In this document: piece after piece, positions 13,376 to 53,772 of the stretch
Position numbering within the stretch: the first letter of the stretch is position 1
Layout: each line of letters opens with the position of its first letter
The notes under the pieces: model-generated
The model's input: the letters and a program-made list of their open reading frames with translations, nothing else
Told to the model about the DNA's origin: nothing
Databases searched by the model: none
Assembly: GCA_964525635.1 (NCBI GenBank)
Contig: CAZGJX010000004.1
Coordinates: 16,144-80,143, forward strand
Length of the DNA stretch: 64,000 nt
Reading direction: 5' to 3'
DNA from: an uncultured archaeon
Lineage (GTDB): Archaea > Asgardarchaeota > Lokiarchaeia > Sigyniarchaeales > SOKP01
Translations under genes and position numbers: made by a program

Positions 13376-14091
13376 CTGAAATATTGAGTAATTTTTCTAT
13401 TATTTAATTCCTCATTTAATATTCTTTTTGTTGTTTCCCATGATTTCCTAGCAAATGGAGGAACATCCTTATGATTTTTTATCCATTCTCGTAAAAAATG
13501 GATTGTTTTTTTATCTGAAGTATAACCAGAACCTAAATCACTATAACCAAGATTGAGATATTTTTCTCTAAGATCATTAATTATAGTATCTCTTTTATTC
13601 TTTGCAATTATTGAAGCAGCAGAGACTATAGGAAATAGATCATCTGCTTTATGTTTCGAAATGATTTGTTTTGGATGATAAGATAAGAGTTTTTTTATTG
13701 ATTTTCCAAATCTAGTTTCATCTACATCTGCGGCATCAATATAAATAATATCTGGTTTTAAATCATTAATTATTTCCACCATTTTAAGAATTTCAAGTTT
13801 ATTTAAAGAAAGATTCTTTAATATCCTATTATCGATTTCTTGAGATGAAACTTGTGTTTCTTTAAAACAAACGCAATTTTCTTTTATTAACTTAGCTAAA
13901 ATTTCTCTTTTTCTTGATGTTAGTTTTTTAGAATCTTTAACACCAATGTTATATAAATAATCAAGATTAGTATATGGAAAACATACACCACATAACACCA
14001 TAGGACCTAAAACGGGGCCTTTCGGGCAAAAAAGCGAATTACTTTTTCAACTCCCGGCCTCATCAATTCCACATATTAGATGATCATCCAT
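13372..14091 (-). CDS. rnhB: Ribonuclease HII, split by a 30-nt BHB-type mini-intron: exons 14091..14051 and 14020..13372
   Basis: The track ORF (13372..14001) starts inside the N-terminal motif. Upstream, ATG 14091 encodes MDDHLICGIDEAG, then AGU UGA. Removing 14050..14021 gives GIDEAGRGPVLGPMVLCGV. Downstream motifs DSKKLT, IDAADV and SAASIIAK are present. Confidence 0.85.
14021..14050 (-). other. Putative bulge-helix-bulge (BHB) mini-intron within rnhB mRNA
   Basis: Central 4-bp helix CGGG (14056-14053) / CCCG (14026-14023). 3-nt bulges AGU (14052-14050) and AAA (14022-14020). 8-bp inner stem UGAAAAAG/CUUUUUUG with a 7-nt loop. The intron contains an in-frame UGA. Cleavage after the 2nd bulge nucleotide restores codon AGA (Arg). 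Confidence 0.7.
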
Positions 14092-14166
14092 AATTCTAAT
14101 AAAATCCTTTTTTCTTTTTTCATTTGCATTTTTTCAGTTTTTCAATAAATTTAATATAAATTATCT

Positions 14167-15192
14167 TTATGAAGTGTTAAGAGTCTCATGAATTTTATTT
14201 TTTCTGATATAATTGATAAATTCTATTTCATCATCCATCTTTTCTAAGTTATGAATAGTTATTACGGGAATTCTTAATTCAGAGAAGTATTTTGGAATTT
14301 TTACATCATTATTAACAATAAAAAGAGCATATTTATGAAATAATTTGGTAAATTTGAATAAATTTTTCAAGCTATTCCTATTTATATTGCTTTTAATATT
14401 TGTTACATCAGAAAATAAGGGGTAAAACTGATTTTGACCATCAATACCCAAGTCTTTTGAAGAGATTAACATATCAAAAGGGAAAATATCTTTTTTATAC
14501 CAATAAGATTTGATACCTATATCCTCAATGATATTTTGAATGTGTTCTTCAAATTGAGTCAATTCTTCCTTTTTTTTTACTTTTTCTATGTTAAAATTTA
14601 GTTTAATATCCCAATTAAGAACATTTATTTTTCTAAATATAGAACTTGAGTCTAAAACCTCACTTATTTTTTCAGCAACTTTTTTTGAAGGACGCATGTT
14701 TTCACTTTCATATGAACAAAGGGTTCTTTTTGTAACTCCAATTTCTTCTGATAGTTCTTTTCTGGTGATATTTTTTTTTTCTCGTAAAGATTTCATTAAT
14801 TCTCCATCAAGGAAAATAATCCCACCCCCTCTACGAGCTAATATAATTGGATATGATTTTTCTTTAAGGATTTTCTCTAATGTATTTATGGTAATAAATG
14901 GTAAATCATTTCTGATATAAATTGTATTATCATCAAGTTTTTGATATCTATTTTTAAGTCCGATTAATAGAGGTTTAGATTTAAGCAAAGTAGATAGAGT
15001 TTTTATTCCATTTATGATATCTTCATTTATATTATCAATATTTTGAACTACTTTTATTATAAATACTGTATCATTCTTTTTAACAATTAAATCATAACAA
15101 TATTTATTTATATGTGATTGAAAATCAAAGACAAATGTTTCGAATTTTGCCTCTATTAATAGCTGATTTATTCTTTGAATTATTTTTTCCAT
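14167..15192 (-). CDS. Archaeal XRE-family HTH transcriptional regulator (COG1395-like)
   Basis: 341 aa. The central HTH is ITRKELSEEIGVTKRTLCSYESENMRPS, flanked by N- and C-terminal domains typical of this conserved archaeal family. Confidence 0.65.
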   Translation of the reverse strand: MEKIIQRINQLLIEAKFETFVFDFQSHINKYCYDLIVKKNDTVFIIKVVQNIDNINEDIINGIKTLSTLLKSKPLLIGLKNRYQKLDDNTIYIRNDLPFITINTLEKILKEKSYPIILARRGGGIIFLDGELMKSLREKKNITRKELSEEIGVTKRTLCSYESENMRPSKKVAEKISEVLDSSSIFRKINVLNWDIKLNFNIEKVKKKEELTQFEEHIQNIIEDIGIKSYWYKKDIFPFDMLISSKDLGIDGQNQFYPLFSDVTNIKSNINRNSLKNLFKFTKLFHKYALFIVNNDVKIPKYFSELRIPVITIHNLEKMDDEIEFINYIRKNKIHETLNTS

Positions 15193-15339
15193 TACTTATT
15201 AGTATTATATCGCATGGTTTTAAAAAATTTTTTCATAAAAACAGAAAAATCTCATTTCTTTAGGATGGATTATGTAATAAAATAATTTGAAAGTCAATAA
15301 TATCTCTCATACCCTATCTTTAAATAAAAGGAATTCTCT

Positions 15340-15510
15340 TTAGCAAATAGTGATGATAAATTAGATAACCAATGAAGCATCATCATTCTACCATAGGGAC
15401 TACGGAATATCAAGTGTTTGGAAAAAATATAAGATTCAAGAAATTCGTTGAGCTCGTTTCGATGAATTACGAATCCAAAACCTTTAGGTGATGGTAGTTC
15501 AACAAATCCT
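15340..15510 (+). other. Degenerate TnpB-3'-like remnant, a relatively GC-rich intergenic patch
   Basis: A 39-codon ORF (15372-15491) ends ..NYESKTFR*. The motif CCTTTAGGTGATGGTAGTTCAAC (15481-15503) aligns at about 21/28 positions with 59-85 at the window start. Confidence 0.3.
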
Positions 15511-15559
15511 AGTCTATGATTATTGATTTATTTTTTTTTTCTATTGTTGTTTTATTATT

Positions 15560-51874: not shown

Positions 51875-51899
51875 TTTACTATTATTTTTGTTTTTAATA

Positions 51900-52214
51900 T
51901 TAATTAACTACGTCGTATATCCATTTTAAATATTTTTGGGAACCATTCTCTATTTTTATTCCAACACATTCAGGTGTATCATAACTATGAATTTTTTCAA
52001 TTGTTTGAATAAGAATACTTGATTTTTCCTCTGTCGTCTTTATTATTAAAAGATATTCATTATTTTCTTCTATTTTACCTTGCCATCTGTATATTGAATA
52101 TATATTGTCAATAATATTAACACATGCAGCAATTTTGTTTTTTACTAAGTAAGTAGCTATCTTCTTTGCTTCTTCTTCTGATGAAGTTGTAGTAAAATAG
52201 ATATAATTTATCAT
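51900..52214 (-). CDS. cutA: CutA1 divalent-cation tolerance protein
   Basis: 104 aa with motifs IAACVNI and YRWQGKIEE. Confidence 0.85.
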   Translation of the reverse strand: MINYIYFTTTSSEEEAKKIATYLVKNKIAACVNIIDNIYSIYRWQGKIEENNEYLLIIKTTEEKSSILIQTIEKIHSYDTPECVGIKIENGSQKYLKWIYDVVN

Positions 52215-52534
52215 ATAATCACTTTTTTTATAACACTAAATTTAATATTTTCAGAAATTTCAAATTTTCTATAAAATAATTTTATTTTTTATTTTATTTC
52301 TTTTAATATATTAAGAAATCAATAGTTATGTTGGTAAAGCATCCCGATTAAGAGAAATAGTTATTCTTACTTATTTTTATAAATATTTATAAAGGTTAAT
52401 TCTATTGATTTATAGATTAGGTTAATTTTAAATGTTCAATTATATTATGATTTTTATTCATTATACAAAAAGAAATTTAAATAATTATAATTTTATTAGA
52501 TATCTATAAAAAAAAGTTTATTATCTACATCAAG

Positions 52535-53269
52535 GTGTTTATCATAATACATAATGTTTATATTATTGACCAAAAAACAGGAATATGTTTACTTCATCGT
52601 AAATATGGTTCAATTGAATTCAATCAAGATTTAGTAAGTGGATTTTTAACCGCATTAAAGGATTTTAGTATTGAATTTTCAAAAGGTTCAGGAGAATTAA
52701 AAGTTATTGATATGCAAGTTTTTTATTTAATGTTGGTTTTCAAAGAAGGTGTTCTAGTAACTGCAGCTGCAGATAAAAATGATGATGCTAAAATAACTCA
52801 TAAAGTTTTAAATGACATTATTGATAGATTTTCAGAAAGATTTGGAAATCTTCTTGATACATGGTCAGGAGATATTAGATTATTTAGGAATTTTGATGGA
52901 ATTATTGATGAATTATTGAAAGTGGGAAGAATTGCTGAAATTCCAATAAGAATTCCCATATTAAAAATTTATAAAAAAGATTTTAAAAAATCTCAATCTC
53001 GTCTTGAAAAAAAGGGTTTAGTGTTATCTGAAGATGATTTAAGAACTGTATCTGATCAGAAACCAAGTTGGACTTCAAAAAGACTTCCAAAACAGGTAAT
53101 AAATCAAGGCTTTTTAAATAAAAAACAGTATGAAATTGTACATTTAGCTGATGGTTTTCACACAGTGGCAGATATAGCTGAAGAAGTAGGTATACCAGAA
53201 TCAAAAATACAAACAATTATTGATAGCCTTGATAGTTTAGGATTACTTGAGTTTATACAGATTAAATAA
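52535..53269 (+). CDS. Longin/Roadblock-like domain protein with a C-terminal winged-helix
   Basis: 244 aa, GTG start. The N-terminus is VYIIDQKTGICLLHRKYG...LVSGFLTALKDFS (a profilin-like/longin-type pattern). The C-terminal HTH-like segment is YEIVHLADGFHTVADIAEEVGIPESKIQTIIDSLDSLGLLE. Confidence 0.5.
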   Translation: MFIIIHNVYIIDQKTGICLLHRKYGSIEFNQDLVSGFLTALKDFSIEFSKGSGELKVIDMQVFYLMLVFKEGVLVTAAADKNDDAKITHKVLNDIIDRFSERFGNLLDTWSGDIRLFRNFDGIIDELLKVGRIAEIPIRIPILKIYKKDFKKSQSRLEKKGLVLSEDDLRTVSDQKPSWTSKRLPKQVINQGFLNKKQYEIVHLADGFHTVADIAEEVGIPESKIQTIIDSLDSLGLLEFIQIK

Positions 53270-53322
53270 TAGAACTGAAAAAACGATTATATTAATATTC
53301 ATAACTTAGAGATTATCAGAAC

Positions 53323-53772
53323 CTATATATCAAAAATTACTTGAATTTCAACATTATTATTTCTAATTTCAATATTCATATATGAATATGTTATTGCTTT
53401 AACTTCAGTACCAATCTCATGTTTTTCTTTATTAAATATTTCTCCTTTAAGATTAGCTTCTAATTCGAATTGGTCCTCAACTTTTTTAATAAATTTGAGT
53501 TTAATTTGACTAAATAATAATCTCTCTACATCAAAAATATATAATAATTCTGATAGAAAATCAAATAAAAGTGCTTCTCTATCCTCAGATACAATCTTTA
53601 TTGATTTTGATTTCACTTTAAAGATTTTATTTAAATTCGGAGTAATAGTCTCCATTAATGCATATGCTGCTTGAGCAAATGCTTCTTCTAAATCTTTACC
53701 CCAGCATCTTACTTTTACATCTGCTGTATGTTCTTCAAACTTAAATCCTGCTTGTTTCATCCCTAATTCCAA
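53323..53772 (-). CDS. Archease (RtcB ligase/methyltransferase cofactor)
   Basis: N-terminal FEEHTADVKV motif. The size is ~145 aa. The likely start is MKQAGF at 53760. Confidence 0.85.
   Translation of the reverse strand: MELGMKQAGFKFEEHTADVKVRCWGKDLEEAFAQAAYALMETITPNLNKIFKVKSKSIKIVSEDREALLFDFLSELLYIFDVERLLFSQIKLKFIKKVEDQFELEANLKGEIFNKEKHEIGTEVKAITYSYMNIEIRNNNVEIQVIFDI

Follow-up and report, generated by a model that had tools for sequence, protein, structure and literature searches.

Probable 30-nucleotide bulge-helix-bulge introns in the RNase HII and Elf1-like genes of an Asgard archaeon

Two genes in a 64-kb stretch of DNA from an uncultured archaeon (contig CAZGJX010000004.1; this whole stretch is called the window below) are each interrupted close to the start by an insert of 30 nucleotides (nt). 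One gene encodes ribonuclease HII (RNase HII), in which the insert falls within codon 14, and the other an Elf1-like zinc-ribbon protein, in which it follows codon 28. We conclude with good confidence that both inserts are real introns of the bulge-helix-bulge (BHB) type and very probably are spliced by the tRNA-splicing machinery. What decides the matter is the comparative evidence and not the frequency of the motif. A first-pass annotation of the window had proposed tRNA-type introns in these two mRNAs at these same places, a proposal now backed by covariation across 21 RNase HII sequences, by compensatory changes in Elf1 and by the positions of the predicted cleavages.

The RNase HII gene is read from the minus strand. 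Its open reading frame (ORF) begins with the ATG at 14091, encodes MDDHLICGIDEAGS and then meets a stop codon; the frame resumes 30 nt past this first segment with GPVLGPMVLCG…. Exon 1 (14091..14051) thus encodes MDDHLICGIDEAG plus the AG of an arginine codon, the insert (14050..14021, sequence TTGAAAAAGTAATTCGCTTTTTTGCCCGAA) interrupts the active-site motif DEAG|RGP, and exon 2 extends over 14020..13372. Deletion of 14050..14021 rejoins AG|A as an Arg codon (AGA) to give DEAGRGPV, and exon 2 joined to exon 1 gives a protein of 229 amino acids (aa) that matches Pfam RNase_HII over its full length (1-199/199, E 8e-49).

The predicted RNA structure at this junction is built from both exons and the intron. 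The 5' bulge takes its third base from intron nt 1. An inner helix of 9 base pairs (bp) joins nt 2-10 to nt 16-24 and is closed by the loop nt 11-15, while nt 25-28 (CCCG) form one strand of the central helix and nt 29-30 (AA) belong to the 3' bulge. The exonic strand of the central helix, CGGG at 14053..14056 (minus strand), consists of the third base of an Ala codon plus a Gly codon. At the start of exon 2 (14013..14020, minus strand), A14020 and G14019 finish a 4-nt 3' bulge, and GCC (14018..14016) pairs with GGC (14059..14057) in the outer helix. Over the complete motif the central helix is 4 bp long, the inner helix 9 bp and the outer helix 3 (+4) bp; the 5' bulge has 3 nt and the 3' bulge 4 nt, and the splice sites lie in these bulges (GGGAG|U and GAA|A). 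Minimum-free-energy (MFE) folding of the site in 60-nt and 80-nt contexts returned a BHB-like motif in which (C)GGG pairs with intron CCC(G), AG|U forms the 5' bulge, the 3' bulge consists of A residues and the 9-bp inner helix is present.

The Elf1-like gene is on the plus strand. Exon 1 (42402..42485, with an assumed GTG start) ends in …KIFTCPQ and is followed by a stop codon, the insert (42486..42515, sequence TGATATTTGGATTTACCAAATATTGAGGAA) interrupts the first CPxC knuckle of the zinc ribbon, and exon 2 (42516..43025) begins CGEKSVKV.... Deletion of 42486..42515 gives …TCPQCGEKSVKV…, which matches Pfam Zn_ribbon_Elf1 over positions 1-78/79 (E 2e-19). The hairpin is strong (z = -3.5), with an inner helix of 42487-42495 paired to 42501-42509 around the loop 42496-42500, and is followed by the central-helix strand GAGG (42510-42513) and by AA (42514-42515). 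In the flanking exons TTGC (42476-42479) pairs with GTGG (42517-42520) to form a 4-bp outer helix in which 100% of positions are paired, and CCAC (42480-42483) pairs with intron GAGG at three of four positions, the other being an A.A mismatch. The geometry is therefore 3-4-3 with one central-helix mismatch, and here also the splice sites lie in the bulges (CACAA|U and GAA|U). The start of this gene is less clear: there is no ATG in 42402-42413 and the assumed GTG adds three residues (MIDI-GRRKRK), its orthologues open M-GRRKRK at TTG or ATG, and the true start of the window gene may be non-canonical.

Both inserts thus have the bulges, the 4-bp helix and the flanking helices of a BHB motif, in relaxed and not in strict form. 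In known introns of this type, as stated for those of cbf5, cleavage is between the second and third bulge residues (PMC2738675). When this rule was applied to the two structures, the cleavage positions coincided exactly in both genes with the borders given by protein homology, which had been set independently.

Relatives of the RNase HII gene were first located through public RNase HII calls shortened to 208-212 aa, on contigs syntenic with the window (AdoMet synthase, a helix-turn-helix protein, RNase HII, fibrillarin and Nop5). A scan of species-representative genomes then gave 30 Asgard loci (L010-L039), which were pooled with the earlier relatives' loci and the window. An insert is present at the identical site in 21 of the 31 distinct Asgard sequences (the window and 20 others), while 10 Asgard loci have none. 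All 21 inserts are 30 nt long and align without gaps, and in every case removal of the insert leaves a complete RNase HII ORF of 219-232 aa. The same insert is also found in independently assembled contigs of the window organism (L001, where the gene call is 2-361). Two of the insert-bearing sequences come from metagenome-assembled genomes (MAGs) labelled Thorarchaeota and Hermodarchaeota. As the intron is common to MAGs labelled Loki-, Thor- and Hermodarchaeota, it looks, by its distribution, like an old intron that was lost in some lineages. One variant was seen: in the L009/L010 intron (L009 2952-2981) the hairpin register is moved by 1-2 nt relative to all the others and the 5' bulge is bigger, with the length still 30 nt.

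The 21-sequence alignment was used to ask how well the BHB structure is maintained. Standard pairs occupy 92.6% of cells, compared with 75.5% in shuffled alignments (0 of 500 shuffles reached the observed value), and sliding the pairing partners by 1-3 columns reduced pairing to 28-47%. Compensatory double changes were found in 11 of the 16 pairs. Some pairs join exon to intron, with perfect covariation in one case: the third base of the exon-1 Gly codon, a synonymous position (column 14), and intron nt 25 (column 41) are G-C in 8 sequences, U-G in 6, C-G in 4 and U-A in 3, and are unpaired in none of the 21. Columns 11 and 44 pair as UA, AU or CG. The constraint extends to exon 2, where the next Gly codon ends in C or T in 21 of 21 intron-bearing genes and so can pair with the G of the outer helix, whereas it ends in a purine in five of the ten intron-less genes. 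RNAalifold run on the 21 orthologues, with no structure supplied, gave essentially the same fold. Moreover, a covariance model built from 19 orthologues with the window sequence left out recovered the window intron (26.8 bits, E 2e-4).

The Elf1 insert has a much narrower distribution. Most Asgard Elf1 proteins are full length (~193 aa, 66-78% identity) and shortened public calls occur only in the closest relatives (87-97% identity). Among these, the loci L047 and L048 each have, at the identical site, an insert of 30 nt whose architecture is the same and whose sequence is very different (AATTTAATAGACTTACTATAAAATGAGGAT). The encoded proteins are 88% identical and the flanking exons almost identical, but four stem pairs have changed on both sides. 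In the syntenic relative L049 (78% identity) the gene reads TCPSCGEK and has no insert. This insert-less relative comes from GCA_014730125.1, an assembly of which a contig (L009) carries the RNase HII intron. Scanning metagenomes for Elf1 genes with an insert of 12-42 nt gave one contig that is of the L048 type over the region read, plus one chance match. This distribution suggests that the Elf1 intron was gained recently and is restricted to close relatives of the window organism.

The two window inserts share the layout given by the first-pass annotation: 1 nt, a stem (9 bp in both), a 5-nt loop, the returning stem, a 4-nt strand and AA. Both are in frame and both place an in-frame UGA at their very start (nt 2-4 in RNase HII and nt 1-3 in Elf1). 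The immediate UGA and the terminal GAA, also cited as shared features, hold for these two inserts and are a property of this genome only. Among the orthologues, the first stop of the intron is variously TGA, TAA or TAG and falls at any of codons 1-7, and the last three bases vary. Just 3 of the 21 RNase HII introns, together with the Elf1 intron of the window, have a stop adjacent to the last sense codon. What is general is the presence of a stop, as an in-frame stop is found in 24 of 24 introns of both families versus ~65% expected from composition, a comparison made among phylogenetically related sequences. This may reflect selection against translation of unspliced mRNA. The view that the two introns form one class is accurate for geometry and not for sequence. 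A covariance model trained on the RNase HII introns alone (R2) failed to detect the Elf1 introns, so that common descent is unsupported, and as judged by these models the two families share geometry and length with no detectable homology.

The number of chance matches expected in this AT-rich window was estimated from first-order Markov simulations. The bare 30-nt architecture is not enriched, with 100, 12 and 1 matches at three stringencies versus 110, 9 and 1.5 expected. The probability that a position specified beforehand has the required structure is ~8e-6 at the grade of the RNase HII site and ~9e-5 at that of the Elf1 site, and both homology-defined junctions have it. BHB scans by structure alone, whether the length was variable or fixed, returned hundreds of matches at chance level and were useless without coding context. 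Combining the fixed 30-nt architecture with ORF context, across the window and every related locus, left just the sites in RNase HII and Elf1; a repeated match in L016 and L038 was rejected as antisense to AdoMet synthase. A covariance model built from both families (R1) detected no third member in the window, where the next best score was 16.4 bits (E ~0.5), or in 209 kb of related loci. The expectation that many more such introns exist genome-wide was thus an extrapolation, with no third case in the window or those loci, although the 209 kb consist mostly of the same few neighbouring genes and neither prove nor refute a genome-wide phenomenon. R2 also matched the gene at 45026-45454, close to its 3' end, and the orthologues of this gene; the match proved to be ordinary coding sequence.

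Perfect 9-10-bp hairpins with the 30-nt layout are also found at 20346-20375 (minus strand) and 34081-34110 (plus strand). They are in frame, contain no stops, lie inside the ORFs of a 536-aa hexapeptide-repeat protein and a 1006-aa prenyltransferase-like protein, and equal the chance expectation in number. When every ORF of the window was screened with Pfam for domains shortened at the N terminus, only an AAA ATPase (27567-28364) was flagged, in which the interruption is a 1-nt frameshift in a run of A residues instead of an intron. This ORF is open for ~96 codons upstream of the first canonical start, a part that includes the Walker A motif GPPGTGKT, and its frame differs by 1 nt from that of the ATG at 28653-28651 (minus strand; the gene extended to ~28653). 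The run is A5 at 28647-28643 (minus strand) and A4 in the orthologue (L047: GTG AAT AAA ATT ACG), and the difference probably reflects either a sequencing error in the homopolymer or a real frameshift.

These data suggest the following scheme for expression of the two genes. In the primary transcript, exon 1 would pair with the 3' part of the intron in the 4-bp central helix and with exon 2 in the outer helix, while the intron body would fold into the 9-bp hairpin with its 5-nt loop. Two bulges on opposite strands would then be offered to the splicing endonuclease EndA. Asgard archaea have been reported to possess a heterotetrameric (alpha-beta)2 EndA with an L1 loop that confers broad substrate specificity (PMC5829648), and an enzyme tolerant of relaxed motifs fits the structures seen in RNase HII and Elf1. 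EndA would cut each strand between the second and third bulge nucleotides, RtcB together with archease would join the exons, and the 30-nt intron probably would be circularised. Splicing of the RNase HII mRNA would restore the Arg codon AGA within DEAGRGP, and splicing of the Elf1 mRNA would restore the zinc knuckle CPQC. Unspliced mRNA would terminate at the in-frame stop within the intron, and products started downstream would lack the catalytic or zinc-binding residues.

Several observations weigh against this scheme. The RNase HII motif is not strictly canonical, as its 3' bulge measures 4 nt or, if the motif is drawn another way, its central helix 3 bp. The Elf1 central helix contains a mismatch (A.A or G.A; column 13 vs column 42) in every sequence, the MFE fold of the Elf1 site favours an exon-exon helix instead, and the Elf1 covariation comes from two distinct intron lineages only. 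An exact look-up of 16 predicted spliced proteins, of the sort that metatranscriptomes might have contributed, found none in 15 billion sequences. Finally, neither EndA nor RtcB is encoded within the window.

Other explanations of the inserts were weighed against the same data. In translational bypassing of the phage T4 gene 60 type, the ribosome would leave the last exon-1 codon, skip the hairpin and land on exon 2, and no splicing would be needed. The window genes recall gene 60 in that UGA directly follows the last sense codon (AGU UGA and CAA UGA) with a hairpin at the gap, and for most orthologues bypassing would yield the same protein as splicing. However, take-off and landing codons are unmatched in all sequences (AGA/AGU versus AAA, AUA or ACA in RNase HII; CAA versus GAA/GAU in Elf1), and the window RNase HII would read DEAG-S-GP and not the conserved DEAG-R-GP that splicing rebuilds through AGA. 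Ribosomes would have to enter the insert in the many orthologues whose first stop is 2 to 7 codons inside it, and bypassing accounts neither for the covariation of exon-1 nt -6..-3 with intron nt 25-28 nor for the exon-2 wobble constraint. We therefore regard it as very improbable. Recoding of the stop, in which UGA would specify an amino acid and the 30-nt insert a stretch of 10 residues, merits almost no credence. It is true that both window inserts are 10 codons in frame with UGA as their only stop, but TAA and TAG, sometimes two stops, are found in the orthologous inserts, and 7 of 41 long window ORFs end in UGA. Moreover, a translated insertion would disrupt DEAGRGP and the CxxC knuckle, and the inserts change by paired substitutions as RNA stems do, unlike coding sequence. 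A self-splicing group I or group II intron was rejected, as 30 nt is far too short and an Rfam search of the window was empty.

Decay or artefact, that is, pseudogenes or errors of assembly or sequencing, would be a natural suspicion given that the data come from MAGs and that the nearby AAA ATPase has a probable homopolymer frameshift. Against this, the insert recurs in independent assemblies and samples, 21 distinct sequences have intact exons that give complete ORFs once it is removed, and its length is invariant while its substitutions are compensatory; the chance of such an origin is negligible. A rival closer to our own explanation, from which it differs in efficiency and regulation only, is that EndA cuts the BHB mainly to inactivate or regulate the mRNA, with ligation inefficient or conditional, such that the gene is normally off or its product N-terminally truncated. 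The universal in-frame stops described above would fit such a role, as would the location of both sites near the 5' end, and a BHB intron in a Haloferax 5' untranslated region (UTR) is known to affect expression (PMC7714728). Yet exon 1 and the exact frame of the junction have been kept across distant lineages, which is sensible only if the exons are joined, and truncated products would lack catalytic residues. We consider cleavage without routine joining improbable. Productive splicing by EndA and RtcB is the explanation that we favour: the fold, its conservation and covariation and the restored ORFs are observed, and cleavage by EndA, ligation by RtcB and any regulatory role are inferred from them.

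The closest precedent is the intron of the cbf5 pre-mRNA found in Desulfurococcales and Sulfolobales of the Crenarchaeota (Watanabe 2002; Yokobori 2009, PMC2738675). As of 2020 cbf5 was described as the sole coding-region case, in addition to the 5'-UTR intron of Haloferax (PMC7714728), and our literature search found no description of BHB introns in Asgard mRNAs. The cbf5 introns resemble those described here in being short, mostly relaxed BHB introns within a coding region with cleavage predicted between the second and third bulge residues, in their link to hetero-oligomeric EndA, in their lineage-specific presence and loss, and in having misled gene prediction. The host genes and lineage differ, these being RNase HII and Elf1 of Asgard archaea, and the present introns are not members of the cbf5 intron family. 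Moreover, the interiors of cbf5 introns are described as highly variable (PMC2738675), whereas here length is fixed at 30 nt and the whole hairpin is conserved and covarying. The two cases also differ in evidence, as the Asgard splicing is predicted from sequence. The HVO_1309 5'-UTR intron of Haloferax volcanii is likewise an mRNA substrate of the archaeal splicing endonuclease, but it lies outside the coding region, belongs to a euryarchaeon with a homodimeric EndA and has been demonstrated both in vivo and in vitro (PMC7714728).

Relative to the BHB introns of archaeal tRNAs and rRNAs (hBHBh' and relaxed forms), the order of outer helix, 3-nt bulge, 4-bp helix, bulge and inner helix is the same, and presumably so are the enzymes, EndA, RtcB and archease. 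The differences are the mRNA host, in which the helices are made of codons and synonymous sites are consequently constrained, the 4-nt 3' bulge in RNase HII and the mismatched central helix in Elf1. The first-pass annotation had also drawn a parallel to eukaryotic HAC1/XBP1 splicing. This parallel is valid for the ligation step only. In common are a very short non-spliceosomal mRNA intron (26 nt in XBP1), joining by RtcB with archease, and alteration of the protein. The cleavage motif differs: IRE1 cuts at a CNG|CNGN-type consensus within each of two hairpin loops of 7 nt, whereas the Asgard sites lie in bulges of 3-4 nt that flank a 4-bp helix, with no twin loops, and there is no evidence of stress regulation of the Asgard introns. 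Gene 60 of T4 and the bypass elements of yeast mitochondria share with these genes a short untranslated gap in an ORF, a hairpin and, in the window only, an adjacent stop; they differ in that here the codons are unmatched, the position of the stop is not conserved and exon covaries with intron.

The window has ~25% G+C and contains many typically archaeal genes, including those for fibrillarin, Nop5, DNA polymerase D subunits, Cdc6, an eRF1-like protein, CDP-archaeol synthase, an Lsm protein and a Ras/Roc-like GTPase. The suspected Asgard affinity was borne out by the labels on homologues of two window proteins and on related genomic loci (Lokiarchaeota/Promethearchaeota), and on these grounds the host is an Asgard archaeon of that group known from metagenome assemblies. 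tRNA genes were detected neither in the window nor in the related loci, and no Rfam family matched anywhere in the window at the gathering score. An archease gene is present at 53323..53772 on the minus strand, as had been noted (Pfam Archease 1-136/136, E 7.8e-44). Archease is the cofactor of the RtcB ligase and is generic in archaeal tRNA ligation. The gene lies ~10.8 kb from the nearer (Elf1) intron, and we attach no special meaning to it, as it has no specific link to the introns and gives the case for them no particular support.

Two other features of the window were noted. At 3895-6468 and 8115-9608 a protein with a SIR2-like domain fused to many TPR repeats adjoins a protein with a C-terminal TIR domain, a pair that recalls NAD-depleting defence modules and has no relation to the introns. 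Upstream of the Elf1-like gene is a conserved minus-strand gene run (24377-41983), mostly without Pfam matches (168, 454, 350, AAA, 412 … 381, 324, 364 aa), which is syntenic in L047 (843-9661), L048 and L049. In the window this run is broken up by an extra ~8 kb (30441-38730), a segment that L047 lacks.

A practical consequence, anticipated by the first-pass annotation, is that gene callers mis-start both genes. In the window, callers begin RNase HII at the ATG at 14001 to give a 209-aa protein without the catalytic D and E. Public calls behave in the same way: the RNase HII entries P0001, P0002, P0021 and P0025 (208-209 aa) start after the intron and lack the catalytic Asp and Glu, and the Elf1 entries P0121, P0142, P0145 and P0154 (162-177 aa) start after the intron and lack the first zinc knuckle. 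Some of the shortened calls are nevertheless named 'ribonuclease HII'.

If confirmed, these introns would widen the range of archaeal pre-mRNA splicing to include the archaea most closely related to eukaryotes and would add two new host genes, one acting in genome maintenance and the other in transcription. One ancient intron and one recently gained intron would together provide a natural system in which to study the origin and persistence of introns spliced by proteins. Selection on synonymous codon positions would be seen to maintain an RNA motif, and the mis-annotation of RNase HII and Elf1 in these lineages would be systematic. A broader possibility, which we put forward tentatively and think rather unlikely, is that EndA/RtcB splicing of uniform 30-nt mRNA mini-introns is a regular and possibly regulated step of Asgard gene expression, with introns long kept (RNase HII) and still being gained (Elf1, in one genus-level clade). 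Were this so, many Asgard genes would be mis-annotated, the in-frame stops would tie protein output to tRNA-splicing capacity, and prokaryotes would have an equivalent of the RtcB-dependent cytoplasmic mRNA splicing of eukaryotes, conceivably even its forerunner.

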